Shown: positions 2,704-16,562, counted from the first letter of the stretch. The stretch: 29,885 nucleotides of DNA from an uncultured Dehalococcoidaceae bacterium (GCA_964503235.1 CAZCZJ010000013.1:1-29885); one strand, 5' to 3'. Made by a program: numbers and translations. Notes: generated by a model not told the origin, from the sequence alone.

Positions 2704-3939
2704 TCAATTTTCCTGCCGGAGGGCGACATCGCCGGGGACGATGGCGTGATCGCCAATCATACTCATTGTACTGTCGGTGCTTGCCTGGCAGACCTTCTTC
2801 AACGCCAGGAGTACTTTACCGGCTACAGTTTCGTCCCAGAACCAGGCCGTAAGCACCTGGCTCGAGGCGCCTGTCTGGCCCGGTTGCGCCGTAACACCCT
2901 CAATATAGTAGGACTTCAGATCCTCAACGGCAAATTTTAGCGTATACGCCAGCGGTATATCGTCACGAGGATTGTCCGGCTCCGTACCTCCGATGAAGGC
3001 ATAAATAAAATCGCCCAGCGCCTCCAGTTCAATGCCGCTAACCCCTACCGTAGTACGCTGACGCTTGGCCACGGCCATGTCGTACCAGGGGCGCATGGCT
3101 GTCATCTCCCGGCGGAACGCCACCTGCAGCGGATCGGTTTCTCCGGGCTCTACCGCGTCCTGGGCGAAATCCACCGGGCAGGCCAGCACCGTTATTTCAC
3201 CGGTCGTCTCCGGTTCTTCCTCGGGGAAGTCCTCCAGCCGCGGGCCATCGGGTACCTCAAACATCCCCGTAAGGGCCAGTAGTACCCGCCTCTGGAAGGC
3301 AGCATCATCGGGCGGCCCCAGGGGACGCCCCAGCTCAAAAGGCACCCACAAGGCACGGGGCGGCTGGATAATCTCCGTGTGTAGCCGGATAAGGCTAATG
3401 CTGGCTGTCGGCACGCCTTCTTCTTCAATAAAGTGTCCCAGCACGCCTACGGCGCGCGTGCATCCCGGTCAGGAAGGAAAGAGCAGGACGGCGTCAACCT
3501 TGTCCTTCTTGAGCATACCAGCGACTTCTCTAATCGGCTCTGTAGAATCCTCTTTAGCACGGCTGCTGTTGTAGGAATAGTGAAAATCGGCCACGCTGCC
3601 GATAATACCTTCAGCCGCCATCTCGCGGAGCCTGTCAAGGGGAAAAACGACGTTCCAGTCCCGCTGGTACCCGGTGCGGTCCATACCGGCCGAAAGATGG
3701 GACATAACCAGGTCATTAGCCCGGACATCGCCCGGGATAACGCGGTAGTAATCGTCCTGAACCAGTTGAAAAGGTCGGTCGTGGCGGGTGTGAAGTCCGG
3801 CTGTGGTGATAATGGCCACGCGCCTCTGCCTCAAGGGCGGCCCTTTGACCCAGGGTCTGGTTTCAAATGATGGGCAAATTTGCGCCATCCTTTGAGTGAG
3901 TTCTCTCTCGGCTTCGCTTAATGTCTCCAGACGAACCAT
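2704..3939 (-). CDS. GrdB/PrdB-family selenoprotein (glycine/sarcosine/betaine/D-proline reductase B family) with in-frame UGA (Sec) at 3471-3469; about 411 aa
   Basis: ORFs 3469..3939 and 2704..3444 are in the same frame, separated only by TGA plus 8 sense codons. The read-through gives ...VDAVLLFPS-U-PGCTRAVGVLGHFIEEEGVP. This parallels the GrdB Sec site ...AVILTST-U-GTCTRCGATMVKEIERAGIP (recalled from memory). The upstream VFPLDRLREMAAEGIIG block is also GrdB-like. Confidence 0.75.
3441..3461 (-). promoter_or_regulatory. Candidate bacterial SECIS hairpin
   Basis: The mRNA reads UGA CCG GGA U-GCACGC-GCGCCGUAG-GCGUGC. This is a 6 bp GC-rich stem starting 8 nt after the UGA, with a 9 nt loop containing GU. 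Confidence 0.35.
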
Positions 3940-3983: not shown

Positions 3984-4499
3984 TTACTTGACAATAATTA
4001 TAGACGGTCCGGTAGCTCCGTCCATCCTCTGTGTGTTTTTATCCGGTACCATTTCCAGCAGCTCATCAATAGTCCCGTAACGTAAAGCTTCAGCCGGGCA
4101 GGATACTGCACAGGCTGGCTTTCTGTCGGTCTCTATACAGAAATCGCACTTCTGCATGATGCCGTCGACACCGAACTGGGGCACGCCAAACGGGCACGCC
4201 GCTAAGCAGTCTTGACAACCATTGCACTTATCCCTATCAACCACTACGATACCATCCTCAGCCCGTTTGGTAATAGCTCCGGTAGGACATACAGCGGCAC
4301 AGGCAGGTTTATCACAGTGCATACAGGCTAGGGAGAAAAATGTTCGGGTAACATCGGGATACTCACCATCCCAGGTCTCAACGACCCGCCGCCATTTTAC
4401 TCCCGGTTCCAGACCACGAGTGCCCTTGCAGGCCAGTTCACAGGTACGACACTGAATACATCTGCCGGCATCATAGTAAAAACCGTATTGCTTAGCCAT
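3984..4499 (-). CDS. 4Fe-4S ferredoxin-type electron-transfer subunit (DmsB/PsrB-like) of a molybdopterin oxidoreductase
   Basis: 171 aa with four Cys clusters: CIQCRTCELAC, CMHCDKPACAAVCP, CNGCQDCLAACP and CDFC...CAVSCP. Lies immediately downstream of the catalytic subunit. Confidence 0.9.
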   Translation of the reverse strand: MAKQYGFYYDAGRCIQCRTCELACKGTRGLEPGVKWRRVVETWDGEYPDVTRTFFSLACMHCDKPACAAVCPTGAITKRAEDGIVVVDRDKCNGCQDCLAACPFGVPQFGVDGIMQKCDFCIETDRKPACAVSCPAEALRYGTIDELLEMVPDKNTQRMDGATGPSIIIVK

Positions 4500-4544: not shown

Positions 4545-6794
4545 TCATCCATTGTTCTCTGCTTTTCGTACTTCGACAAGGGTCTGTTTCGGCATGGCTG
4601 TTACCACCGGGTCAAAGGCTTTATCGGGGTCAATACTGTACAGAACGTTTACGTTCGCGCCCCCATCCAGCAGGGGATAGCCCGGTAGTCCGAGCTCGCT
4701 GCAACCCTGCCACCACCCGTGGAGACTCATGATTGTGTCCGGGCGAATCCCCGGGAAATACAGGGCCTTTACCTTAATCCAGCCATGTGGTGACTCGACG
4801 ATTACCCAGTCGCCATCGTTTATCCCGCGCTGTCGGGCTGTATCCGGATGGATATGTATCCAGGGTTCAGGCTGAATCTCGCGCAGATAAGGAACGTTGC
4901 GCAACCACCCGTGATTATACGCTTCTGAGGTATGTGAATCAAAAAGGACCAGGGGATATTTTCCCAGGAGTTCGGGTGTGCCTGTCGGGCTCTCGGGAGG
5001 TTCTACCCATTCCGGCAGCGGGTTAAACCCGTTCTCTTCGAAACTGGTGTTATAAATTGCCACTTTGCCCTGGGGAAGATATGGTGCCCCGGAAAGCCGG
5101 GGGCTGGGAGCCGTAAGAAATTCATCGTATTTCTCGTAAACCATCGGCTTCGGCTCATAGATAATACCGGTAGGATATTTTCTGAGCTCATCCATTGTCA
5201 TGCCGAAGTTTTCCAACTGATAGTTCATGCACTCCTCGATGTTACCGTGCCAGAAGTCCTCTCCGTATCCCATCTTAACACCGAGGTCAAGCCAGAATTC
5301 ATAGTCCGATTTATAGTCTCCCAGCGGCTCGATTACCTTATTTCGCGCCATGATCCAGTTGCCCGTTCCCCCCATGGGTACTTCAAACGGGTGGTCGCAT
5401 TCGTACATGGTAGTTACAGGAATGACAACATCGGCCCAGGGCATCGACGAGGTCTGCATCACGTCGATAACCACGAAGAATTCCAGTTTTTTCAGGGCTT
5501 CTACTATCCTCCTGGAACCGCGGGTGATTACCGTGGGCTGGGTTCCGGGAGCGATTATCGTCTTGATGGGATATGGCTCTCCGGTAAGAACGCTATCGAG
5601 ACAGCGGTAGTATGCTGAAGATATGCCTTCGATGAAAGGCTGAAAGCAGCGGGGCATCTCCGGGCCTACCAGCTTGTCGATGAACTCCTGAGTATATCTC
5701 TTATGAAGAGTGACCGGTTTTGGCATCGGCATGCTGCTCTCCATCGGGACGATATTACCACCGGGCCGGTCGAGGTTACCGCTGATGGCTATTAATATGG
5801 CAACGGCACGGATAGCATTATTGGAATCCACAACCTGATCGAACGCGTTCCCGGCAAGAATACAGGCTGACCCGGCTGTCCCGTATAACCGGGCAACCTC
5901 CCTTATCTGTTCAGCTGGCAACCCCGTTATGGGCTCAGCCCACTCCGGGGTATATTTCTGTATGTGAGGTACAAGTTTATCGAAACCGTAACACCACCGG
6001 GAGACGAATTCCGCATCATACAGGTGCTCATTGATTATCACATTGAGCATGGCCAGCGCCAGAGCGCCATCGGTACCGGGCCTGATGGGGAGCCACATAT
6101 CAGCCTTAGCCGCATCCGGCTGCATCTCGGGTTTAATAACTACGAGCTTGGCTCCTCTTTCTTTAGCGTCTAAAATCTTTTTCAGATTGCCTGTCGGTGC
6201 ACCAGCGTAGACAGGATTTGCTCCCCATACCACGATAAGGTCAGCATGCTCATAATCGGCACCAGCCATACCGAGCATGGGGGCGGCTACGGTATAGGCA
6301 AAGCCGAAAGCTCGCTGTATGGCGCAAATACCGCTATGGCAATAGTTAGGACTGCCGTGTGCCGTCAGGAACCGAATGAAATAACTTTTATAGGTCCGGG
6401 CTTGCGGCGAGAGAATAGCCAGGGATTCCGGCCCATATTTCTCCTTTTGTTCCTTTAGCTTATCGGCGATTAAGTCAAGAGCTTCATCCCATGTCACCCT
6501 CTCGAATTTACCTTCACCCTTCTTCCCCACACGTTTTAAAGGGTACTTAAGACGTTGTGGTGAATAAAGCCACTGCATAGACGCAAAAGCCTTGAGGCAA
6601 AGTTTACCTTTGTTTATGGGAGATTCCTTCATGCCTTCAACTCTGACTAATCTACCGTCTTGCACATAACAGTTCAGCCCACACCCCATGCTCGGACCGC
6701 ACAAAGAACAGAAGGTAGGAATCATACGTTCTTCAGGCTTCATAGTCTGTTTGAAACTTATCTCTTCCTTAAAATCGTCATTCTTGGTACTCAT
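4545..6794 (-). CDS. Molybdopterin (bis-MGD) oxidoreductase catalytic subunit, DMSO-reductase superfamily, cytoplasmic
   Basis: 749 aa. N-terminal FeS motif CSLCGPSMGCGLNC...LCLKA and a typical C-terminal GDWV...barrel domain. No twin-arginine signal. GGAG lies 7 nt upstream of the ATG. Confidence 0.9.
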   Translation of the reverse strand: MSTKNDDFKEEISFKQTMKPEERMIPTFCSLCGPSMGCGLNCYVQDGRLVRVEGMKESPINKGKLCLKAFASMQWLYSPQRLKYPLKRVGKKGEGKFERVTWDEALDLIADKLKEQKEKYGPESLAILSPQARTYKSYFIRFLTAHGSPNYCHSGICAIQRAFGFAYTVAAPMLGMAGADYEHADLIVVWGANPVYAGAPTGNLKKILDAKERGAKLVVIKPEMQPDAAKADMWLPIRPGTDGALALAMLNVIINEHLYDAEFVSRWCYGFDKLVPHIQKYTPEWAEPITGLPAEQIREVARLYGTAGSACILAGNAFDQVVDSNNAIRAVAILIAISGNLDRPGGNIVPMESSMPMPKPVTLHKRYTQEFIDKLVGPEMPRCFQPFIEGISSAYYRCLDSVLTGEPYPIKTIIAPGTQPTVITRGSRRIVEALKKLEFFVVIDVMQTSSMPWADVVIPVTTMYECDHPFEVPMGGTGNWIMARNKVIEPLGDYKSDYEFWLDLGVKMGYGEDFWHGNIEECMNYQLENFGMTMDELRKYPTGIIYEPKPMVYEKYDEFLTAPSPRLSGAPYLPQGKVAIYNTSFEENGFNPLPEWVEPPESPTGTPELLGKYPLVLFDSHTSEAYNHGWLRNVPYLREIQPEPWIHIHPDTARQRGINDGDWVIVESPHGWIKVKALYFPGIRPDTIMSLHGWWQGCSELGLPGYPLLDGGANVNVLYSIDPDKAFDPVVTAMPKQTLVEVRKAENNG

Positions 6795-6844
6795 TCTTTG
6801 TCTCCCTATAATTTCAACATTTCAGATTAATAATTCTACAATTT

Positions 6845-6879
6845 AAAAAAGCTTGAAGTATTTCAGAGTAGTATACTTC
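6845..6879 (-). terminator. Weak candidate terminator separating the TIR/AAA+ module from the Mo-oxidoreductase operon
   Basis: Minus strand: GAAGTAT, 11 nt loop, ATACTTC, then aagcTTTTTT. The stem is short and AT-rich. Confidence 0.3.
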
Positions 6880-7192
6880 CACCGGGATGCAGCTAATTCA
6901 ATAATTGTTGGATGATAAACTCATGAATATATGGACGGTAGCTCATTAACAATATAAATTGTACCTTTTACATTGTCGATTAATCAATTGGGGAAATTTT
7001 CAGCAGCACTTTGAATCCTGCTACCCATCGTCCCATTTTACAATTGTCTCCTTTATATTTTAAGCGATGTAGTTCCACAGTACAATAAATCTAATTTGTT
7101 AATAGTGATAGAAAGGGACTCTTGATGAGGAAACGTTGCAACAAGTGGCATCTTCAGTCGTGACTAAGTAATCAAGGAGTTCTCTGTGTATA

Positions 7193-7266
7193 GTGGGAAC
7201 TAGCTGTTTCTACGGAACTAATCACCTTAATAAGTGCCAGGCAACAATCAACAATTAGTTCCCACC
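7193..7266. repeat. Three copies of a GGGAACTA-type 10-12 nt motif (two direct, one inverted)
   Basis: GTGGGAACTA (7193-7202) and TAGTTCCCAC (7257-7266) form perfect 10 bp inverted arms. An internal direct copy GGAACTAAT (7214-7222) is complementary to ATTAGTTCC (7255-7263), giving two mutually exclusive helices. Confidence 0.6.
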
Positions 7267-7314
7267 TTGCGGCAGCCGACAAGTCGAATACCGGTATTTC
7301 CGTGGCGGGAGTCG

Positions 7315-7464
7315 TTAGGAGCAACCTGTCCGGAGTAATGAGAACGGCCCCAAGGACATCGCCGGGAGGAAAACGAAACGGCTGATAGGAACAGCAGGTA
7401 AACAGCCATGCACCGGATTTAACAGCCTCGAGAAGATTTCAGCTATCTCGCCGACTCCACTCAT
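7315..7464 (-). CDS. Hypothetical 49 aa ORF directly downstream of the AAA+/RyR gene (speculative)
   Basis: ATG at 7464-7462 lies 12 nt after the upstream TAA. Translation: MSGVGEIAEIFSRLLNPVHGCLPAVPISRFVFLPAMSLGPFSLLRTGCS. This stretch is visibly more GC-rich than the surrounding AT-rich spacer. No recognisable motif and only a weak SD (GAGAG). Confidence 0.2.
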   Translation of the reverse strand: MSGVGEIAEIFSRLLNPVHGCLPAVPISRFVFLPAMSLGPFSLLRTGCS

Positions 7465-7476
7465 CTTTCTCTCGCC

Positions 7477-10134
7477 TTAGCTCAATTTAGCCATGGAGTA
7501 TCCGGCCTTGGCCAGAATTTTGGGAATACCTCTCACTAAGGTACGGTCTTTTTTCTTCTCTATTTCAGAAAGATGCTCCCAGGGGACCATGTCTTTATGC
7601 AGTCTTTTTTCTTTATCGGTTGTTTCCGCATGCTGCCAGCCATTCTCTAACTTCAGCTTAGTCCACCGTTCGTGCTCTATTTGGGCTAGTTTTTCAACTT
7701 CTGTATCCTTAAATTCACCGGAAGCTTTACCACCCCGGGCCGGGAGCATGGCATATCCGATACTCGCCAGTTTATTAGCAATGTCACGGACATTATCCCG
7801 ATTCTGCTCCTTTTCATCCTCAGGTAATTCCGCATAAGGCCTTAGCGAGCTATGTTCTTTTTTATCATTACGTGTTTTCGGTCCATATTTATAACCTTTA
7901 GCTTCCAAATCTTCGCAAAATACCTCGTGGGTCGCTTCGGCAAGCTTCTCAAGCAGGTCAGAGCTCATCGTCAGATGATGCACCAAAGTATAAAATTCAC
8001 TGCCGTCTACATGCAAATTCAACTGCGTCTCCGTGGGTAGGCTGGAACGCTCGAAGCTCGTTTTGCCAGACAACTGGCTCGTGGTGATTATGGTTTCCAT
8101 CGACCGGGCGCCGTGTTTGTATCCCTTGATTAATAAGAAGGCGCGCAGCAGACCTTCATCGATGTTTACAGTACCATCACTATTCAGGAGTTGGGGTGTG
8201 TTTCGTTCTAAGACCGAACGCAGGAGAATGGCGCGGCGGATGACATGATATGGGTCTCCACCTCGCCCGGACACGCCTTTATCTTCCTGCCTGTTCGGCC
8301 CGAGAATATTGAGGAATCCTCTGATTCGGCTGACAAAATCAGGCAGCTTCACTGCCCGGCGGTTTTCATCTTCGAGATTTGCCCCGAATGCCTCCAGACT
8401 ATGGCTGGAACCGCCAGCAAAGACGAAGATACTCCTGCCTATCGGGTGAATTATCTGACCATCCTGGAATTCGCCGTCCTGCATCGGCGCCAGGAAATAG
8501 CGTAGCCAGCCCAGCGGCTGACCCTGCAGAGCGGTATCGAATTCGTCCCAAAAGACGAGAGGAATCTTGCCGGATAACGCTTTATCACGTACCTGATTGA
8601 AGGCGTCAAGTAAATCATAAGGTTCGCCTAATTGTGAGAGGTTAAAACTCAATGCCTCGATTTCCCGCGGACGTATCGAATTGGCTACCTGACTTACCGC
8701 GAAAGATTTTCCGGCTCCAGGCGGACCGAAAACAGCGATGGAGAGAGGCTTCTTCTCGATTCGCTGGCAATATTCACTAATCAGACTGCTTATGCAGTTC
8801 AAGGCTTCGATTTCCCGGCGGTCTACCGTTACAAGTTTCCCGAATCTCCTTACCGGCACACCCGACAGTGCGTTATGCAAACCCTCACGCACAATCTTTT
8901 GGGCCACTTTTTCAAGGGATTCCGGGTTTTGGTCCTCAAGGATGGTCCAAAAAGATGGTGCTTCTGCATCAATAGTCGTGGTTGCCTTTGCAGAAAGTAC
9001 ATCCGCCGGGTTCCTGATTGGTGCGTTTGCCAGGCTATCAGTCTTATCTGCCAGTCTGGTCGCTATCTTTGAGATTGGAAAAGCAGCCGGGTTTTGCCTC
9101 AGGTCGCCAACGGCATCACCATATCCTTCAATGTGAAGAAATCGCGTGGCGCCAAGGCCGGACTGAATACCTCTATGCAGATTCGGGGTAGAAGTATTGA
9201 GCATTAACTCTCTGGCAATACCCGCAATAAGGCAAGTATTATAGCCAATCATGTACCCTCGATAGTTACGACCCCATTCACCTTCCATCACTTCTGGATC
9301 AAAGAACAGGGTAGCATCCAGGGTGCGGTCCGATTTCCGTGATAGCAGTATGGCACCAGCTGTATCAAAGGAGATAACAACATGTAAGCATCGTGTGATT
9401 GCGTTCACATGAGGATTATACAGGAGCTCCCAAACCAAATCCTGGGCTGTCCTCTCCCATGATATTTGGCGACTTATATGGACATCGGCATGGCAGCGAA
9501 GGTCGTTGGCGGTCATGACAGCTATAAGCTGGTCGGCATGATGTTCCTGCAAATGGTTCCAGAGCTTGCCCTCGGCGACGGGTCGCGCGATTTTAAGGAG
9601 GACCCAGGGACGGGAAGTGTCACTCGATAGAGCACGAGGCCAGTATTCCTGATGGTCGCGAAATCCAAGGTTGGCATCATCCAGGATAATAAGATCCGGG
9701 TTCGGAGGGTCATTAACGACTTTTTGCCAGTCATCTGATGAAGTTGTATCGGCACCTGCCCGGTCCAGCCCCAGGAATTCCTGCACACGCCAGACCTTTC
9801 TTTTCTGACTCGCGTTGCGTTCATCGAGCTCAAATGGTGCCCATGTAGCATAGGAATGGTGGAATCGATCGTCGCCGGGTCTTACTGGCTCCTGGGGCAT
9901 ATTAGTTTCTCGGACTTCAAATATGGTTCGCCTGGATTCACCTAAGTTCTTGGCAACCGCTTTGATTATGTCCGCCAACATCGCTGCGCCCCCTCGTTGG
10001 CAACAGGCTCGAGTTAGATCTTCAGCGTTCCAACCCTCCGTAAGGACATCTCTTCGTTGTATACGAACTATATTCCAGTCGATGGTGACATCCCCGGTCA
10101 CGACAACTAATTTCGCACTCTTTCCCTTGTTCAT
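7477..10134 (-). CDS. Multidomain protein: N-terminal ribokinase/pfkB-like domain (degenerate), AAA+ ATPase, and two C-terminal RyR (ryanodine-receptor repeat) domains
   Basis: Start moved to ATG 10134, which has AAAGGAGG 5 nt upstream. Walker A is GPPGAGKS (about 8705-8728). Walker B is LVFWDEFD (about 8536-8562). Sensor region is HGARSME. RyR repeats are EKLAEATHEVF...LRPYAELPEDEKEQNRD (about 7750-7953) and EKLAQIEHERW...MVPWEHLSEIEKKKDR (about 7492-7698). pfkB-like blocks are LVVVTGDVTIDWN, RGGAAMLA, LIILDDANLGF, IAVMTANDL and VVISFDTAGAILL (about 9120-10116). Confidence 0.8.
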   Translation of the reverse strand: MNKGKSAKLVVVTGDVTIDWNIVRIQRRDVLTEGWNAEDLTRACCQRGGAAMLADIIKAVAKNLGESRRTIFEVRETNMPQEPVRPGDDRFHHSYATWAPFELDERNASQKRKVWRVQEFLGLDRAGADTTSSDDWQKVVNDPPNPDLIILDDANLGFRDHQEYWPRALSSDTSRPWVLLKIARPVAEGKLWNHLQEHHADQLIAVMTANDLRCHADVHISRQISWERTAQDLVWELLYNPHVNAITRCLHVVISFDTAGAILLSRKSDRTLDATLFFDPEVMEGEWGRNYRGYMIGYNTCLIAGIARELMLNTSTPNLHRGIQSGLGATRFLHIEGYGDAVGDLRQNPAAFPISKIATRLADKTDSLANAPIRNPADVLSAKATTTIDAEAPSFWTILEDQNPESLEKVAQKIVREGLHNALSGVPVRRFGKLVTVDRREIEALNCISSLISEYCQRIEKKPLSIAVFGPPGAGKSFAVSQVANSIRPREIEALSFNLSQLGEPYDLLDAFNQVRDKALSGKIPLVFWDEFDTALQGQPLGWLRYFLAPMQDGEFQDGQIIHPIGRSIFVFAGGSSHSLEAFGANLEDENRRAVKLPDFVSRIRGFLNILGPNRQEDKGVSGRGGDPYHVIRRAILLRSVLERNTPQLLNSDGTVNIDEGLLRAFLLIKGYKHGARSMETIITTSQLSGKTSFERSSLPTETQLNLHVDGSEFYTLVHHLTMSSDLLEKLAEATHEVFCEDLEAKGYKYGPKTRNDKKEHSSLRPYAELPEDEKEQNRDNVRDIANKLASIGYAMLPARGGKASGEFKDTEVEKLAQIEHERWTKLKLENGWQHAETTDKEKRLHKDMVPWEHLSEIEKKKDRTLVRGIPKILAKAGYSMAKLS

Positions 10135-10316
10135 GTCCGCCTCCTTTGTTATGCTGTTAATCGGCCCTATCACCTAAGAACCGTCGGAAATCCTTATAGA
10201 GGTTCTCAAACCACATCGCTGTCTGAGTCAAGAGCCACAAGCTCTCCACCTTTTCAACCTAATTCCGATAATTCCTGTTGGGCGTTTTCCTGCACTTATC
10301 CTCCTGTATCGTACCG

Positions 10317-12029
10317 TCAGTGGTCTCCCTCAGGTTCAACGAGGCTGAAGATAAACACTCCACGGGTTGTGTCCGTGGAAAATGCCAGGTCGTCCACCGC
10401 AAACACACTGCTGACCTCTTCCATGGCTGAGTAGTCAGCTATCATAACCGGATTTTGTGGGTCGCTGATGTCGATAGCCATAATCCCGCTCTCAAGAATT
10501 TCCGTCCAGGTGCCGTGGTCTATACCGAAGGAATACGTCACATAGGCGATGTTACCGGTGATGGAAATCTGCATGGTGGTAAGCCGGCCGGTGGCCCCCG
10601 GCGGTATCAGCTCATGCGGTCCCACGGGTACGTATCGCCCTATTTTAATGGGTTGTGAGGGTACGCTCACATCAATTATCTCCAGTCCTGCGGACCATCC
10701 CACCACGTAGGCTGTTTTACCCACCACGGCGATTCCCGACCCCCAATCACTGGTATCGAACTGCCCTATTTGCACCGGCTCGGAGGGATTTCTGACATCA
10801 ACCAGGTGGAAATCATTTGCAAGTACGTAGGCGACATTATCCGCCACGACCAATCCGGGATAGGCAACATTGGAATTAAACTCAAATTCACCGAGCTTAA
10901 CCGGGCTCGAAGGCACGCTTGTATCAAGGAGGGTCAGGCTATCGGAGGTGGTTAAATAGACAATATTACCAACCACGGCAATCTTATTCAGGGAACGAAA
11001 GTCATCGTGCTCGTACTCTCCTACTTCTACCGGATTGGAGGGAATGCCCACATCTAACAACAGCAGCCTGTCGCGCAGGGCTTTATTCCCCTGTATTCCC
11101 CCTTGCTCGATTACGTAGGCGATGTTATCAACGACCACCACGTTCTCAACACTGTTCTCGACGATTTCAAGGGAGTACTGACCTATCTTCTTTGGCTCAG
11201 AGGGCAGGCTGATATCCAGCACCAGTAAACCGTCACCGCCGTTGGCTACATAGGCTATATTGTCAACGACAAAGACACTATTTGCCTCGCGGGAAGTGCT
11301 GTAGGTTCCTATATGATTAAGAGATAGCTCGGTCGCTGTCTCACTTCCTGCATCCTCCTCGCCGGATGTGTTGAAATATAGCCAACTGCCGATTACAGCT
11401 ACAATTATGATGAAAACCGACGCTATCCCCCAGGCCCATCGTCCTCTCAATTTGTTTAGCCACTTCCCGCCGGCCTTACCAGCAGCTTTGGGTATTGGCA
11501 AGTCGTAGGCCGGCAAGTCAGGCTTGGTGCCTCCCTTTATCACGCCGGGTGACGGAGTTTCGCGGAGCATCCTACGTATCCGTTCCAGTCGCGATACATC
11601 AGGTTTGGATGTCGGGTGAATGTCCAGGGCTTTGAGTCCATCGACGATGCGGTCCAAGATACCGGTGATTCCCTCCTGCGGAATGAGTATCGATGTGGCC
11701 GAGCCCAGGGCTTCCCGCCATTCCGGCTGGCGGTTTTGAAATTCTACATGGCTGATGTCCCGCAGCACCGGGATAAAGTATATGCCGGTTTCGTGCGCTC
11801 TAACGACTTCTCTGGTGACCTGCCGGGAACCGAGCGAATGCGGGGATATCACCAGGATAACGGCCTGGGATTGCTCAATCGCTGCTCCTGTTTGCAGGAG
11901 GTACGAAGGACCTGGTATGCTGTCCAGCTCGTAAGACCAGGTCGAATAACCTGCCTCCTCCAGCTTAAGAGCAATCTCTAAGGCAACATCAGCATCTTCT
12001 TCAACATGGCTGATGAATATATGGCTCAT
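10317..12029 (-). CDS. TIR-domain protein with a single transmembrane helix and an extracytoplasmic 7-repeat LVIVD beta-propeller
   Basis: The N-terminus IFISHVEEDADVALEIALKLEEAGYSTWSY...AVILVISPHSLGSRQVTREV fits the TIR_2 pattern. The TM helix WAWGIASVFIIIVAVIGSWLYF (about 11373-11438) is preceded by a K/R-rich segment. Seven NIAYV...L.V.D.S.PS.P..IG repeats follow. GGAGG lies 6 nt upstream of the ATG. Confidence 0.85.
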   Translation of the reverse strand: MSHIFISHVEEDADVALEIALKLEEAGYSTWSYELDSIPGPSYLLQTGAAIEQSQAVILVISPHSLGSRQVTREVVRAHETGIYFIPVLRDISHVEFQNRQPEWREALGSATSILIPQEGITGILDRIVDGLKALDIHPTSKPDVSRLERIRRMLRETPSPGVIKGGTKPDLPAYDLPIPKAAGKAGGKWLNKLRGRWAWGIASVFIIIVAVIGSWLYFNTSGEEDAGSETATELSLNHIGTYSTSREANSVFVVDNIAYVANGGDGLLVLDISLPSEPKKIGQYSLEIVENSVENVVVVDNIAYVIEQGGIQGNKALRDRLLLLDVGIPSNPVEVGEYEHDDFRSLNKIAVVGNIVYLTTSDSLTLLDTSVPSSPVKLGEFEFNSNVAYPGLVVADNVAYVLANDFHLVDVRNPSEPVQIGQFDTSDWGSGIAVVGKTAYVVGWSAGLEIIDVSVPSQPIKIGRYVPVGPHELIPPGATGRLTTMQISITGNIAYVTYSFGIDHGTWTEILESGIMAIDISDPQNPVMIADYSAMEEVSSVFAVDDLAFSTDTTRGVFIFSLVEPEGDH

Positions 12030-12148
12030 TTAAGTCCTCCGATACTCAAACCGTACCCATTACCTAAAACGGCTCCACTGTATAAAATCCTACGATAATA
12101 CATCATAAACATCACACCCTTTTTCTAAAAAGGATAATATCTTTAGGA

Positions 12149-12177
12149 TTATTATTAATTGAATTATGATATGTCAA
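12149..12177 (-). promoter_or_regulatory. Sigma-70-type promoter for the TIR gene
   Basis: Minus strand: TTGACA (12177-12172), 17 nt spacer, TAATAA (12154-12149). This would give a 5' UTR of about 110 nt. Confidence 0.45.
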
Positions 12178-12486: not shown

Positions 12487-14331
12487 ATGGCCGGAGCATA
12501 TATGGGGAAGATTTTATATGTAAATCTTTCCACGGGAGAAATAAAAGAGGAAACCCCGGATGAAAAACTCTACCGGGACTTCCTCGGGGGTTATGGTCTT
12601 GGCGCCAAGATTCTGTATGACCGACAGAAAGGTGGTGTCGACCCGCTGGGGCCGGATAACATTCTCGGCCTGGTCACCGGGCCGCTGACCGGTACGCCCG
12701 CCGTTACCGGTGCCCGCTACGTGGCCGTGGCTAAATCACCCATCACCGGCGGCTGGGGAGATGCCAATTCCGGCGGTTATTTCGGTCCCTACCTCAAGTT
12801 CGCCGGTTATGATGCTGTTTTCTTCGAAGGAATCTCGGAAAAGCCGGTATACCTTCATATCGATAACGGTAAAGCGGAACTCAAGGACGCCGGTCATCTC
12901 TGGGGCATGGATACCTATGAAACCGAGGATGCCCTGAAGGCCGAGTACGGCAAGGATACCCACGTATCCTGTATCGGCCCTGCCGGTGAGATGTGTTCGC
13001 TGATATCCTGCATCATCACCAAGAGGGGAGCCGCCGCGGGACGGTCAGGCCTGGGTGCCGTCATGGGTTCCAAGAAGCTTAAAGCGGTATCCGTCACCGG
13101 CAAAATGGAAGTGCCCATAGCCGACAAAGCCCGCATGGACGAATTGCGGAAAGAACAGATCCACAACATTCAGAATCCCCCGCCCGGACCGATGGGCGCG
13201 ATGAGCGCCAGCATGGGAAAGTATGGTACCACCGGCATGACCGACATGAACGCCCACAGCGGTGATACCCCGGTGAAAAACTGGGGCGGCGTCGGTGTCA
13301 GGGACCTGCCGGATGTTGATGGTCTTAAAGGAGATGCCGCCATCCACAACCGCAAGCGCGCCGAGCCCTGCTGGCGTTGTCCCATATCCTGCCAGGCATC
13401 GATATATGCTGGAGAGGGTGAGTACAAGTATCCCGAGGACACCCGCCGCATCGAGTACGAAACCCAGGCGACCTTCGGCACGCTATGCTTAAACAGCAAC
13501 ACCGAATCGCTGAACATGTGCAACCATCTCTGCAACAGCTACGGAATAGATACCATCTCCGGTGGCTGTGTAATGGCTTTTGCCATCGAATGCTATGAAA
13601 ACGGTATTATCACCAAGAAAGATACCGACGGTATCGAACTGACCTGGGGCAACCACCAGGCTATCGTCGCCATGACGGAAAAAATGTGCAAGCGGGAAGG
13701 CCTGGGCGCTATCCTTGCCGACGGCGTCAAGGTGGCTGCCGAAAAGATAGGCAAGGGTGCCGAAAAATATGCTATTCACATCGGCGGTCAGGAACTCGGT
13801 ATGCATGACCCGAAGCTCGTTGGATTCATGGGTAATTTTGCCGCCGCCCGTTATCAGATGGACGCGACGCCCGGTCGGCACACAGCGGGTTTTGGCCCCG
13901 AAAGCTTTCGGGGACACATCACCAATGCCGCAGGACTCTGTTTGTTCGGTTCGATGGGACCGCCCGGAGGTAAGAACTACGCGCTGGAGAATATTAAAGC
14001 CGCTACCGGCTGGGACCTGACCCAGGAGGAACTGGATAAGATTGCCGAAAGAATTGCCAATATAAGGCATCTGTTTAACCTCCGCGAGGGGATTAATCCC
14101 CTGGACTGGAAAGTGCATCCCAGAATAATCGGTGTGCCACCACTGGAAGAAGGCCCTCTGGCCGGTGTAACGGCTGACCTCGAGGCCCAGGTATACTGGT
14201 GTCTCGGAGCCTTGGACTGGGACAGGAAAACCACCAAGCCGAGTAAAGAAAAGCTGCTGGAACTGGGTATGAACGATGTAGCCCAAGAGCTCTGGCCGCC
14301 GGAGTCGATGCCTGGACCTGGTCCGCAGTAG
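12487..14331 (+). CDS. aor: Aldehyde:ferredoxin oxidoreductase family (tungstopterin enzyme)
   Basis: 614 aa. N-terminus GKILYVNLSTGEI...FLGGYGLGAKILYD is AOR-like. AOR FeS motif CWRCPISC plus the distal AAGLCLFG. Length and domain order match the AOR family. Confidence 0.9.
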   Translation: MAGAYMGKILYVNLSTGEIKEETPDEKLYRDFLGGYGLGAKILYDRQKGGVDPLGPDNILGLVTGPLTGTPAVTGARYVAVAKSPITGGWGDANSGGYFGPYLKFAGYDAVFFEGISEKPVYLHIDNGKAELKDAGHLWGMDTYETEDALKAEYGKDTHVSCIGPAGEMCSLISCIITKRGAAAGRSGLGAVMGSKKLKAVSVTGKMEVPIADKARMDELRKEQIHNIQNPPPGPMGAMSASMGKYGTTGMTDMNAHSGDTPVKNWGGVGVRDLPDVDGLKGDAAIHNRKRAEPCWRCPISCQASIYAGEGEYKYPEDTRRIEYETQATFGTLCLNSNTESLNMCNHLCNSYGIDTISGGCVMAFAIECYENGIITKKDTDGIELTWGNHQAIVAMTEKMCKREGLGAILADGVKVAAEKIGKGAEKYAIHIGGQELGMHDPKLVGFMGNFAAARYQMDATPGRHTAGFGPESFRGHITNAAGLCLFGSMGPPGGKNYALENIKAATGWDLTQEELDKIAERIANIRHLFNLREGINPLDWKVHPRIIGVPPLEEGPLAGVTADLEAQVYWCLGALDWDRKTTKPSKEKLLELGMNDVAQELWPPESMPGPGPQ

Positions 14332-14354: not shown

Positions 14355-14406
14355 CCGGGATACAGCTTGTGCTCTGTTAATCCGTCGCCGTTAAGCTGTG
14401 TCCCGG
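14355..14406 (+). terminator. Long hairpin between the convergent AOR and Mo-oxidoreductase genes (candidate terminator)
   Basis: CCGGGATACAGCTT (14355-14368) pairs with AAGCTGTGTCCCGG (14393-14406). This gives 14 bp with one G-U on the plus strand and a 24 nt loop, followed by TAAATTTTA. The 3' arm overlaps the last codons of the minus-strand gene. Confidence 0.4.
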
Positions 14407-16514: not shown

Positions 16515-16533
16515 ATTCACCTCTCGATACCGT

Positions 16534-16562
16534 ATTTTACACTCACGAGTGCGTATGAGCAA
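16534..16562 (-). promoter_or_regulatory. Sigma-70-type promoter for the 14391..16514 gene
   Basis: Minus strand: TTGCTC (16562-16557), 17 nt spacer, TAAAAT (16539-16534). Confidence 0.45.

Follow-up and report, generated by a model that had tools for sequence, protein, structure and literature searches.

A gene on the minus strand of the window (the whole stretch of 29,885 nucleotides that was analysed, from an uncultured Dehalococcoidaceae bacterium) encodes a single protein that combines a ribokinase-like domain, an AAA+ module and tandem RyR repeats, as an earlier note on this DNA had proposed. A gene for a TIR-domain protein lies upstream on the same strand. The features are as follows.

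7477..10134, minus strand: whole coding sequence of the target gene, 885 aa plus stop, comprising the ribokinase-like domain, the AAA+ module and two RyR repeats.
9010..10134, minus strand: ribokinase-fold (pfkB-like) domain, aa 1-375, predicted from an AlphaFold2 model and Foldseek, without canonical catalytic motifs.
8839..9009, minus strand: linker and conserved helix (FWTILED...), aa 376-432, leading into the AAA+ module.
7990..8838, minus strand: AAA+ ATPase module, aa 433-715, from a PF00004 match, Walker motifs and AAA+ fold matches.
7735..7977, minus strand: RyR (R12-type) repeat 1, aa 720-800, from Pfam RyR and the RyR repeats of PDB structures.
7480..7722, minus strand: RyR (R12-type) repeat 2, aa 805-885; the best Pfam stretch is aa 813-882.
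10254..10295, minus strand: stub of 13 codons (GTG..TGA), a remnant of the SLOG-like gene found between TIR-LVIVD and the target in close relatives.
10317..12029, minus strand: TIR-LVIVD partner gene, 570 aa, upstream of the target (TIR_2 E 1.5e-16, LVIVD E 6.7e-26).
12148..12177, minus strand: promoter-like site TTGACA-18-AATAAT (11/12), 5' of the TIR gene, from a consensus scan alone.

The open reading frame that contains the target spans 7477..10173 on the minus strand. An AAGGAGG ribosome-binding site is present 7 nt 5' of the ATG at 10134, and homologues align with the same start Met; the protein is therefore assigned 885 aa. The coordinates 7477-10134 proposed previously are exact, the gene is intact, and all motifs that had been quoted from it are found in the translation. 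Comparison with a 91%-identical relative yields a dN/dS of 0.24, which indicates that purifying selection still acts on the gene. The motifs of the ribokinase-like domain and of the AAA+ module are located as follows.

aa 9-21: LVVVTGDVTIDWN, ribokinase-like domain.
aa 47-54: RGGAAMLA, ribokinase-like domain.
aa 148-155: LIILDDAN, ribokinase-like domain.
aa 178-185: VLLKIARP, ribokinase-like domain.
aa 204-212: IAVMTANDL, ribokinase-like domain.
aa 252-264: VVISFDTAGAILL, ribokinase-like domain.
aa 296-305: IGYNTCLIAG, ribokinase-like domain.
aa 470-477 (G470-S477): Walker A, GPPGAGKS, AAA+ module.
aa 526-533: Walker B, LVFWDEFD, with D530/E531, AAA+ module.
aa 674-680: HGARSME, with the sensor-2-like H674-G-A-R677-S, AAA+ module.

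An AlphaFold2 model of aa 1-432 (pLDDT 80.4, pTM 0.81) supports the ribokinase fold that had been read from the order of the N-terminal motifs. All of the 50 best Foldseek matches in the PDB belong to the ribokinase family (E 7e-10 to 6e-8, probability 1.00), with a TM of ~0.5 on the target, and a viral structure library used as a negative control gave no significant match. The fold is visible in the predicted structure and is missed by sequence profiles. For aa 1-434, Pfam produced no match at E ≤ 10, searching the PDB with a profile built from 18 homologues gave no match to the N-terminal domain, and hhalign against E. coli RbsK (its sequence verified against 1RKD) returned a probability of 0.06, which is not a match. 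The modeled domain shares its three-layer α/β/α fold with a β-lid, and the succession of its strands and helices, with the pfkB/ribokinase kinases (RbsK 1RKD, PfkB, LacC, HldA and ketohexokinase). Judged by that succession, it apparently also has their Asp after the N-terminal strand and their GG ahead of helix 1. However, identity to these kinases is 8-14%, x-D-L-R stands in place of NxxE and G-Y-(N/T)-(T/S)-C in place of GAGD, and the target family has invariant motifs of its own (SWERTAQD, WR and FDP..E..W).

Residues invariant in the alignment of this domain are G14, D15, D19, W20, G48, G49, W115, R116, D153, F158, R159, D211, R213, S225-W-E-R-T-x-Q231, G293, C301 and L302. D15, D19 and G48-G49 fall where strand 1 and helix 1 of a ribokinase would place them; this mapping follows the order of strands and helices, not superposition. 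The segment after strand LIAVMT reads A-N210-D211-L-R213 and contains no Glu. The Glu of NxxE thus corresponds to invariant R213, and N210 varies among homologues (N/D/G/S/K). Helix 298-312 begins G297-Y-(N/T/S)-(T/S)-C301-L302, and neither the alignment nor the model places an Asp or Glu within two residues of the anion-hole helix start in any register. Within the limits of such mapping, both NxxE and GAGD are gone, in agreement with the loss of catalytic motifs reported before. We infer, as did the earlier note, that the domain binds a ligand rather than acts as a kinase. The invariant Cys301 adjoins the lost Asp and so leaves a small door open to non-canonical catalysis. Farther on, the linker has a pLDDT below 50 at aa 379-405, invariant W396 and a helix at 404-422.

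The AAA+ module matches PF00004 with 25.0 bits (cut-off 21.2) at aa 468-537, a match that covers the N-terminal half of the profile only. Arg603 is a candidate Arg finger after strand 5, and this residue, Walker A/B and H674-G-A-R677 are all invariant in 35 homologues. The Walker motifs are intact, in line with the earlier note. Weak sequence matches are to NCBIfam CdvC and PDB Vps4. The structural model is poor (pLDDT 59.7), and its PDB matches in the significant range are all AAA+ proteins at E ~1e-3 (Rpt, PspF, FtsH, p97, Vps4 and Lon). The best of these weak sequence and fold matches are to classic-clade AAA+ proteins (Vps4/CdvC, FtsH, proteasomal Rpt and p97), with which the target has in common Walker A and Walker B and, as candidates, the Arg that follows strand 5 and a sensor-2-like GAR. 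It is very divergent, as the score to PF00004 reflects, and in the poor model a long stretch of low confidence appears to be inserted between sensor 1 and the lid.

The C-terminal repeats are readily recognized. PF02026 matches two stretches of the target (E 4.9e-27; 94.5 bits, cut-off 27.4), the RyR repeats in tandem, and phmmer searches of the PDB align them with the repeats of RyR1/2/3 and with the bacterial RyR-domain structures 3nrt and 6uag. According to a 2026 preprint, RyR-domain proteins of phages use an H/W/H/D tetrad to bind or cleave 2'/3'cADPR made by TIR (PMC13232231). In RyDEP, a phage cADPR glycosidase, the tetrad is H75/W78/H100/D117, and six of eight phage homologues with the tetrad bind without cleavage (PMC13232231). 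Thus, the view that RyR function in prokaryotes is unknown is out of date, and the link between RyR repeats and TIR, formerly tentative, becomes much stronger.

Repeat 2 of the target has the complete tetrad, H821/W824/H846/D863, with a spacing (0, +3, +25, +42) identical to that of RyDEP, which belongs to the same Pfam family. These positions are conserved among 196 members (H 99%, W 88%, H 84%, D 90%). The corresponding residues of repeat 1 are H736/F739/H761/N778, and among 180 members the frequencies are H 100%, aromatic 98%, H 79% and N 92%; this repeat thus differs from RyDEP in having Asn where the acid stood. Because the tetrad is general to the RyR domain and most tested phage homologues only bind, its presence predicts a pocket rather than a specific ligand or activity. 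The tandem repeat resembles the RyDEP homodimer in its two-fold arrangement. In contrast to RyDEP, the target is host-encoded and its repeats are joined covalently to AAA+ and ribokinase-like domains; a search of 50,697 phage records gave no match to it. The target is encoded together with TIR genes, whereas RyDEP acts against them, and a role in signaling rather than evasion is therefore expected.

The TIR gene that had been placed beside the target is borne out by its TIR_2 match. Its product carries the TIR domain at aa 1-135, including the conserved Glu (E74), and an LVIVD β-propeller C-terminal of one TM helix at aa ~199-219 (hydropathy peaks at 2.29 over aa 201-219, after the segment KWLNKLRGR). 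The predicted topology has a cytoplasmic TIR domain and an extracytoplasmic β-propeller. No terminator-like site was found between the TIR gene and the target, and the promoter-like site is a possible operon promoter. In 91%-identical relatives the order is TIR-LVIVD, SLOG and target, with TIR-LVIVD in the same place. At the position of the stub, three of these loci (L081, L083 and L084) have a 196-aa gene whose match to the SLOG-partner HMM has E 2e-64, and DNA alignment reveals a common SLOG start followed by the loss of ~600 bp in the window. The SLOG-like gene has thus been deleted here relative to four syntenic relatives, and the window copy may act as a two-gene variant or be impaired. 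The cassette lies amid housekeeping genes, and at L082 the downstream context of the SLOG-target pair is a different one, which suggests mobility.

The window is not a defence island, and its flanks hold metabolic and housekeeping genes. No PADLOC model matches the target. The TIR-LVIVD protein matches the PADLOC models Aga_TIR and SAVED_TIR, not ThsB, and the window contains no ThsA effector (SIR2-SLOG or TM-Macro). The dN/dS of the TIR gene is 0.18, and that of a neighboring AFOR gene is 0.05.

The architecture defines a widespread, undescribed bacterial protein family. More than 120 full-length homologues share at least 53% identity with the target, at least 537 loci are present in GTDB species-representative genomes, and an exhaustive profile search collects 2,149 clusters at 50% identity, with pfkB kinases not among them. 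Hosts include Chloroflexota, Acidobacteriota, Planctomycetota, Deltaproteobacteria, Methanomicrobia and others; archaea are thus represented, and plasmid copies exist. The ribokinase-like (RK) domain is nearly always fused to AAA+, and RK-AAA forms that lack RyR occur naturally. Fusions of the form RK-AAA-RyR-RyR-SLOG are found in 7 of 150 representatives, and at one locus the protein is split into an RK-AAA gene and, 5 bp on, an RyR-RyR-SLOG gene. Such fusions and fissions are Rosetta-stone evidence that the domains and partners are tied together. Apparently stand-alone homologues are also known, for example on a Clostridium estertheticum plasmid and at the 74%-identical L073.

Neighboring genes were surveyed at 80 loci. 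The commonest partner is a SLOG-like gene rather than TIR, a partner that the earlier note did not mention; it is found at 47 loci, in 44 of them at most 1 kb from the target homologue. TIR genes are present at 36 of the 80, which leaves more than half of the loci without one. Up to 1 kb from the gene they reach 1.67 per 10 kb, a density that drops to 0.2 per 10 kb between 5 and 7 kb and to 0 at 7-8 kb; this decay substantiates the proposed linkage of homologues to TIR genes. SLOG or TIR occurs at 63 loci, and 9 of the other 17 have truncated flanks. None of the three outcomes that the earlier note had named as refuting its idea was observed: a ribokinase fold is predicted, PF02026 is matched and TIR linkage is found. 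The earlier interpretation as a whole is supported.

The TIR proteins are fused to WD40, TPR or LVIVD repeats, several TIR-repeat paralogues can share a locus, and the conserved TIR Glu is retained in 53 of 56 TIR domains of related loci. The SLOG-like partner appears to be a small, distinct DprA/YpsA-like protein, judging from marginal profile matches: among 23 partners, the three Pfam families with the most hits are YAcAr (4), YpsA (3) and DprA (3), all of the SLOG clan, with E of 0.003-0.03. The PADLOC model ShosA (DprA-like) matches 4 of 32 partners, and a PDB sequence search gave no match. A SLATT 2TM domain, known as "SLOG-associating", is fused to 8 of 32 partners and a NudE-like ADP-sugar NUDIX domain to one. 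At three loci a RelA/SpoT-TPR-SLOG(LSDAT) protein takes the place of TIR. This candidate source of a different signal means that some members of the family may respond to a ligand that is not ADPR-based. Some loci adjoin sigma-54 activators or TrkA-N genes.

These observations suggest that the target is the core ATPase of an undescribed TIR/SLOG-associated nucleotide-signaling conflict system that most likely acts against phages and follows a Thoeris-like logic; we give this reading a probability of roughly 0.55. The intact cADPR-type RyR pocket and the habitual TIR and SLOG neighbors make the target most likely the receptor and motor of such a new immune signaling system. A TIR-repeat protein would sense the trigger; in the window this would be a membrane protein with TIR inside and the LVIVD β-propeller outside. 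The TIR domain would convert NAD+ into an ADP-ribose-derived signal, and the tandem RyR/R12 module, as residue conservation and gene linkage suggest, would receive it, presumably through the full His/Trp/His/Asp pocket of repeat 2 and a binding-type pocket with Asn for the acid in repeat 1. In most relatives a SLOG-like protein, neighboring or fused to RyR, may join in reception, and some of these proteins carry a SLATT membrane effector. Occupancy of RyR by ligand would gate the AAA+ module with its intact ATPase motifs. The ribokinase-fold domain, which keeps the putative ribose-site residues Asp15 and Gly48-Gly49, could provide a second ribose- or nucleotide-binding pocket or the output; in such a fold, ADP-ribose would reach across both the ATP site and the sugar site. 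The analysis itself shows the motifs and predicted folds, the linkage of the genes, their fusions and fissions, the size of the family and the SLOG deletion; in this scheme we infer the identity of the ligand, the direction of signaling and the output. Several observations count against the reading: the target matches no PADLOC model and the window is not a defence island, many loci lack TIR and some homologues seem to stand alone, RelA/SpoT-like proteins replace TIR at three loci, RyR-less forms occur, the tetrad is general to RyR domains, the SLOG matches are marginal, and the ribokinase motifs are mapped by the order of strands and helices.

Other roles must be weighed against this receptor model. 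Repeat 2 keeps the RyDEP catalytic dyad (His821 99%, Asp863 90% family-wide) and might be a glycosidase that converts cADPR isomers to ADPR, so that the target sets a threshold or resets the system and SLOG(-SLATT) or TIR proteins kill. The attachment of SLATT effectors to the SLOG partner, not to the target, and the single partner with a NudE-like hydrolase, which fits ADPR turnover, are consistent with such an off-switch. However, neither an AAA+ motor nor a pseudo-kinase domain of 375 aa is needed in a simple hydrolase, the majority of phage homologues that carry these residues bind without cleaving (PMC13232231), and RK-AAA persists in RyR-less forms, which places the putative hydrolase outside the conserved core; we consider this role unlikely. 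Slightly less probable still is a cascade wherein RyR opens or binds the signal, the N-terminal domain, as an active small-molecule kinase of a non-canonical type, phosphorylates the ribose of that signal, and AAA+ assembles a complex. The predicted fold has an invariant Asp and GG dipeptide at the putative ribose site, conservation is strong in the helix and loop with which ribokinases contact adenine (IQSG..A.R.LH.EGYG), and Cys301 recalls the vitamin kinases ThiM and ThiD of the ribokinase superfamily, which have Cys at the base position. Yet the Glu of NxxE, which holds Mg2+/phosphate throughout the pfkB family, is an invariant Arg here and its Asn varies, the start of the anion-hole helix has no acidic residue nearby, and pfkB profiles match at no threshold used.

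We think it improbable, more so than either of these enzymatic roles, that the family has nothing to do with conflict and instead supplies an ATPase with a housekeeping or regulatory task in NAD/ADP-ribose or nucleotide metabolism, with TIR and SLOG in metabolic or developmental signaling of filamentous or multicellular bacteria. Metabolic flanks in the window, the missing PADLOC match, the sigma-54 activators or TrkA-N genes at some loci and the many Chloroflexota and Acidobacteriota hosts with complex lifestyles agree with that idea. The distribution, however, is patchy across domains, including archaea, with plasmid copies; partner architectures vary greatly, some having SLATT pore domains, and a locus can have several TIR-repeat paralogues; the dN/dS of the target is several-fold that of the AFOR gene (0.24 versus 0.05); and genes are lost between near-identical strains. 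Patchiness, variable partners, raised dN/dS and gene loss are typical of defence modules. A separate question concerns the window copy, which could be a decaying remnant, non-functional without SLOG whatever the family does elsewhere. The clean loss of its most constant partner, with only the stub left, lends this some weight, and of the alternatives it is the one we find least improbable, though still doubtful. Against decay, the target and TIR reading frames are intact with dN/dS of 0.24 and 0.18, the ribosome-binding site is kept, and five other loci (L003, L004, L006, L008 and L009) have TIR and no detectable SLOG gene, so a two-gene form seems viable.

The proposed conflict system shares with type I Thoeris (ThsB TIR plus ThsA SIR2-SLOG) the placement of TIR beside domains that bind nucleotide signals, with SLOG as a habitual partner. 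The ThsA SLOG domain recognizes TIR-made gcADPR, and the logic of a sensor TIR, an ADPR-derived signal and a receptor is common to both (PMC13276650). In contrast to Thoeris, the target loci lack a SIR2 or Macro effector, the partner SLOG is small and without SIR2, the receptor candidate is an RyR/R12 tandem on an AAA+ protein with a pseudo-ribokinase domain, and the linked TIR proteins carry WD40, TPR or LVIVD sensor repeats, that of the window being transmembrane. PADLOC Thoeris models match neither the target locus nor the partners. Building blocks and grammar are also held in common with the "nucleotide-centric" conflict systems predicted computationally by the Aravind group (Kaur et al. 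2020, PMC7159879), in which an enzyme that processes nucleotides, TIR or another, is combined with a SLOG sensor, a SLATT 2TM effector, WD40/TPR arrays and an NTPase. The texts of that group that were searched, including PMC7159879, mention neither the ribokinase-like nor the RyR domain.

A bolder proposal, which we advance tentatively and consider less likely to hold than not to, is that the target is the first cellular RyR/R12-class receptor for TIR-made ADPR signals, with a dead ribokinase fold re-used as an ADPR pocket that gates the AAA+ motor, since ADPR would span its ATP and ribose sites. Prokaryotic forerunners of both the TRPM SLOG/LSDAT domain and the R12 repeats of RyR would then be united by the operon in a single TIR pathway. 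If true, this suggests that both Ca2+-channel modules were inherited from bacterial immune signaling, and it would support cADPR-type regulation of RyR through R12. The target repeats directly match the R12/R34 repeats of RyR1-3, and the TRPM SLOG domain has its counterpart in the partner at the three RelA/SpoT loci, which carries Pfam LSDAT_prok ("SLOG in TRPM, prokaryote"). Unlike the eukaryotic proteins, these are not channels; the domains reside in a soluble ATPase and its operon partners.

The target gene is a single intact gene at window 7477-10134 (-), with a product of 885 aa. The listed ORF spans 7477..10173, and a GTG at 10173 was considered as its start. This start was rejected because AAGGAGG lies upstream of the ATG at 10134 and because all homologues, when aligned, begin at the Met that this ATG encodes. 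The motifs quoted in the earlier note were all found, each at its expected place. PADLOC and NCBIfam recognize nothing in the protein beyond a generic ATPase, and Rfam gives no match in the whole window, including the 680-bp non-coding stretch downstream of the gene.

The protein belongs to a large family. More than 120 full-length homologues (at least 53% identity, 870-940 aa) came out of a word-indexed search; where they have a name, it is "RyR domain-containing protein," "ATPase" or "hypothetical." With one genome per GTDB species, at least 537 loci were confirmed among at least 600 pattern matches, in Chloroflexota, Acidobacteriota, Planctomycetota, Deltaproteobacteria, Gemmatimonadota, Ignavibacteriota, candidate phyla and Methanomicrobia. 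An exhaustive profile search with the N-terminal domain only produced 2,149 clusters at 50% identity, 839 of them at E<=1e-30; this number is far too small to include ordinary pfkB kinases. The dominant architecture, found in 57 of the best 150 representatives, is a ribokinase-fold N-terminal domain (N-domain), an AAA+ module and two RyR repeats, and another 38 of these 150 have the first two parts without RyR. Contig truncation was rejected as the origin of at least four RyR-less forms (P0122, P0133, P0146 and P0163), which are complete genes ending inside their contigs.

The two RyR repeats claimed by the earlier note match PF02026 with an E-value of 4.9e-27 and 94.5 bits, compared with a cut-off of 27.4. 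Among PDB sequences, the C-terminus matches the repeat domains of RyR1-3 and a Bacteroides RyR-domain protein. A mycobacteriophage RyR-domain protein, RyDEP, was described in a preprint of May 2026 as an inverting glycosidase (PMC13232231). Six of eight phage homologues bind the TIR-made 2'/3'cADPR signals, and two that were measured have nanomolar affinity and do not cleave the signals (PMC13232231). In the RyDEP pocket, H75 is the base and contacts the terminal ribose, W78 stacks on adenine, H100 lies on the phosphates and D117 is the acid; according to the authors, these four residues are conserved in animal R12 domains (PMC13232231).

Repeat 2 of the target contains H821, W824, H846 and D863, with the spacing of the RyDEP tetrad (0, +3, +25, +42), and these residues are conserved in 99%, 88%, 84% and 90%, respectively, of 196 family members. 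The corresponding positions of repeat 1 are H736 (100% of family members), F739 (98% aromatic), H761 (79%) and N778 (92% Asn). Because repeat 2 keeps the H/W/H/D residues and repeat 1 has N778, the RyR module is predicted to form a pseudo-dimer in which the pocket is of catalytic type in repeat 2 and of binding type in repeat 1. Being family-wide, the tetrad predicts a pocket, not a particular ligand. The pocket residues, coupled with linkage to TIR genes, make an ADPR-derived compound the leading candidate. The module shares PF02026 membership and pocket likeness with RyDEP; however, RyDEP is a phage protein, whereas the target module is part of a cellular motor protein. An origin as a phage-derived anti-defence gene like RyDEP was rejected, given that phage records contain no target homologue, that the chromosomal flanks of the cassette are housekeeping genes, and that the gene is co-oriented with the TIR gene.

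To characterize genomic context, ORFs were called at 80 loci, and HMMs were built from recurrent neighbours. The commonest partner is a protein of ~190 aa with the motifs G-x-T-G-H-R, L-A-E-G-A-D-R and G-G-T, encoded in 47 of the 80 loci and, in 44 of these 47, within 1 kb of the target. Its start usually lies no more than 30 bp from the target stop codon, or overlaps it. The three Pfam families matched by the most members are YAcAr, YpsA and DprA, all of the SLOG clan (E 0.003-0.03, marginal but consistent), and the PADLOC model ShosA (DprA-like) matches four members. Profiles of this partner gave only chance matches to the PDB. On the strength of the marginal Pfam and PADLOC matches, we term the partner SLOG-like. 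In eight longer versions, SLATT domains ("2TM effector associating with SMODS and SLOG") are attached to it, and one partner, from a 32-member set, is fused to NUDIX, with the ADP-compounds hydrolase NudE as its best match (E 4e-28). At one locus (L035:4157-6391), the partner has two SLOG-like domains and DUF4231/SLATT_1 membrane domains.

The earlier note had seen a TIR gene beside this one copy, and the association extends to relatives: TIR partners occur in 36 of the 80 loci, commonly with two or three paralogues per locus, and have an N-terminal TIR domain followed by WD40, TPR or LVIVD arrays. A Glu aligned to E74 of the window TIR protein, which we take to be the catalytic Glu position of TIR NADases, is present in 53 of 56 TIR domains of these loci. 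TIR genes are densest close to the target, with 1.67 per 10 kb inside the first kilobase, 0.2 per 10 kb at 5-7 kb and none at 7-8 kb; thus, the linkage is not a regional background. SLOG-like genes, TIR genes or both are present in 63 of the 80 loci, and 9 of the other 17 have truncated flanks.

Three loci carry a RelA/SpoT-TPR-LSDAT_prok gene directly 3' of the target homologue (L022:10704-12770, L034:10798-12681 and L040:10688-12724). This putative alternative to TIR as signal-generating partner joins another nucleotide-modifying enzyme, resembling alarmone synthetases, to another SLOG family ("SLOG in TRPM, prokaryote"). In seven of the best 150 representatives, an extra C-terminal domain behind the RyR repeats matches the SLOG-like partner (E 1e-27 to 3e-78). 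Conversely, at L087:345-3627, the protein is split in two, with an RyR-less ribokinase-AAA+ gene ending 5 bp before an RyR-RyR-SLOG gene. Because the same parts undergo both fusion and fission, gene organization provides strong evidence that they act together.

The N-domain (residues 1-434) is elusive at the sequence level. It has no Pfam match at E<=10 and no match in NCBIfam or PADLOC; neither phmmer nor a profile of 18 homologues finds anything among all PDB sequences, and hhalign against E. coli ribokinase RbsK (sequence checked against 1RKD) was negative. An alignment-based AlphaFold2 model is confident (pLDDT 80.4, pTM 0.81), and its best 50 Foldseek matches in the PDB are all ribokinase/pfkB-family proteins (E 7e-10 to 6e-8, probability 1.00, TM ~0.5 on target), including 1-phosphofructokinase, PfkB, LacC, HldA, ribokinase, ketohexokinase, and pseudouridine and nucleoside kinases. 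The same model has no significant match in a viral structure library. The fold that the earlier note had read by eye was therefore correct, with the relationship resting on predicted structure.

Family members of pfkB/ribokinase carry a GG dipeptide, an NxxE motif and a GAGD anion hole with the catalytic Asp. We placed these motifs on the N-domain by the strand and helix order of the model, and the mapping is inferential. All aligned homologues keep D15, D19 and G48-G49. NxxE corresponds to x-D211-L-R213, in which the Asn is variable and the Glu is replaced by an invariant Arg. The GAGD-type helix begins G297-Y-(N/T)-(T/S)-C301-L302 and has no acidic residue in nearby registers, which agrees with the loss of GAGD proposed in the earlier note. 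The domain also has invariant motifs of its own (W115-R116, D153..F158-R159, S225-WERT-Q231 and F278-D-P..E284..W287). Together, the retained, lost and private motifs make a canonical kinase unlikely and a conserved ligand pocket likely; given the invariant Cys301, a non-canonical activity is conceivable. In fold the N-domain is ribokinase-like, but neither sequence searches nor the mapped catalytic motifs identify it as pfkB.

The central region matches PF00004 weakly, although above threshold (25.0 bits compared with a cut-off of 21.2), and among PDB sequences it is weakly matched by Vps4. Walker A (G470...K476-S477), Walker B (D530-E531), the candidate Arg finger R603 and a sensor-2-like H674-G-A-R677 are all invariant in 35 homologues; therefore, the ATPase looks competent. 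Modelled separately, aa 428-718 gave a poor structure (pLDDT 59.7), probably because the alignment is shallow and its sequences too similar. Even so, this model's top matches in the PDB are AAA+ proteins without exception, the majority from the classic clade (E ~1e-3), and at this quality the model supports "AAA+" and not any clade.

The window has syntenic relatives in four contigs, which share its aldehyde:ferredoxin oxidoreductase (AFOR) and molybdopterin oxidoreductase genes and code for a protein 91% identical to the target. Their gene order is TIR-LVIVD (563 aa), a 196-aa gene and the target, and the 196-aa protein matches the SLOG-partner HMM (E 2e-64). In the window, the latter gene is absent, and its GTG at 10295 is kept 21 nt past the TIR stop, as in the relatives. 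The cassette and its surroundings include the following features:

2704-3444 (-): 246-aa ORF without a Pfam match
3469-3939 (-): 156-aa ORF matching only the C-terminal third of selenoprotein B (GRDB) of glycine/sarcosine/betaine reductase
3984-4499: 4Fe-4S dicluster protein
4545-6794 (-): molybdopterin oxidoreductase paralogue
6795-7476: non-coding stretch, 680 bp, downstream of the target; no ORF of at least 60 aa, G+C ~0.45
10148-10295 (-): deletion scar; 13-codon stub from GTG 10295 to TGA 10254, with ~600 bp lost before the target RBS
12487-14331 (+): AFOR gene
14391-16562 (-): molybdopterin oxidoreductase paralogue
16713-19352 (+): molybdopterin oxidoreductase paralogue

Identity to the relative differs across the scar, being 82% in the TIR segment (dS 0.57) and 92% in the target segment (dS 0.19), which suggests that the scar is a recombination junction. 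Likeness to the syntenic relative L081 stops at ~7369, and this places the right-hand border of the cassette within 6795-7476. By consensus matches only, a promoter-like site lies 5' of the TIR gene, and there is no terminator-like site between this gene and the target. One of the three molybdopterin genes has an AhtL-like (pyrogallol hydroxytransferase) first domain, and the 156-aa ORF may be a truncated or selenocysteine-interrupted gene.

In the window TIR protein (10317-12029 (-)), a Lys/Arg cluster precedes the single strong hydrophobic segment (aa 199-219). On this basis, the protein is predicted to cross the membrane once, with its TIR domain in the cytoplasm and the LVIVD beta-propeller outside the cell, a topology reminiscent of Toll-like receptors. 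At other loci, TIR partners mostly have WD40 or TPR arrays instead of the LVIVD propeller.

We propose, with a probability of roughly 0.55, that these genes form a Thoeris-like pathway. A TIR-repeat protein would sense a trigger and make an NAD+-derived signal, which would be bound by the RyR module, jointly with the SLOG-like partner where present. Binding would gate the AAA+ module, and the pseudo-ribokinase domain would serve as a second ribose or nucleotide pocket, or as the output. ADP-ribose is nearly a bisubstrate analogue of the ribokinase reaction, with an adenine nucleotide joined via phosphates to ribose O5; hence it is plausible, if speculative, that ADPR occupies a dead ribokinase fold in which Arg has replaced the metal-binding Glu. 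In relatives, killing might be carried out by SLATT pores or by TIR NADase activity. Folds, motifs, linkage, fusions and the deletion are direct observations, from which we infer ligand, signalling direction and output. The main weaknesses are the incomplete TIR linkage (36/80 loci) and the provisional nature of the SLOG assignment and motif mapping.

The window copy may have decayed functionally following SLOG loss. The dN/dS of the target relative to its 91%-identical counterpart is 0.24, compared with 0.18 for the TIR gene and 0.05 for the neighbouring AFOR gene; the remaining genes are intact, and we consider decay less likely than not. It is doubtful that the RyR module is instead an off-switch that clears the signal by using the His/Asp dyad; repeat 2 retains both residues, and the phage homologues that were measured bind without cleavage. 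An active non-canonical kinase, with Cys301 invariant and the GAGD acid lost, seems slightly less probable again. A non-defence regulatory role for a cassette set among housekeeping genes, and linked in relatives to TIR and SLATT, is the least likely of these readings.

The Thoeris-like pathway would share its proposed working logic with Thoeris but is not a member of that system, since it lacks a ThsA of the SIR2-SLOG or TM-Macro type and PADLOC finds no match. Bacterial, plant and animal immunity share TIR-derived ADP-ribose signals as a currency. To our knowledge, the receptor domains described for these signals are few (SLOG, Macro and phage sponges), and we know of no link between RyR/R12 and TIR signals before 2026, when it appeared solely as a phage counter-measure. 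The family described here is large and host-encoded; its members couple a RyDEP-type pocket to an AAA+ motor and a pseudo-ribokinase, and are encoded together with TIR and SLOG genes. If the proposal is true, TIR signalling gains a new receptor and a new type of output, bacterial RyR function can be viewed in a natural setting, and the long-debated cADPR-RyR connection becomes accessible to testing.

Aravind and colleagues have predicted nucleotide-centred conflict systems (PMC7159879), and the parts found here follow the same grammar. In the papers searched, neither a ribokinase-like nor an RyR domain is mentioned among such systems, and the ribokinase-AAA+-RyR architecture is not described. 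We rate as new the proposed receptor/motor component, added to an already known TIR-based nucleotide signalling.

Many of the family's members come from Chloroflexota, Acidobacteriota and Planctomycetota, phyla thinly covered by current defence catalogues. Two archaeal MAGs (L033 and L062; one of Methanomicrobia and one labelled Euryarchaeota) encode 51%-identity homologues, which implies inter-domain transfer; in L033, a 1,675-aa WD40-rich protein is encoded directly 3' of the homologue. Because at least some cultured strains and plasmids carry the family, among them Maioricimonas sp. JC845 (L075) and plasmid pCF009-b of Clostridium estertheticum CF009, it is testable. Plasmid homologues number three, from Clostridium estertheticum, Methylobacterium and Streptomyces. 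The one on plasmid pA of Methylobacterium sp. FF17 (L088, NZ_CP107533.1) is full-length with 31% identity, and a ~6.2-kb gene annotated "SIR2 family protein" lies ~1.4 kb away on the opposite strand, past a transposase gene.
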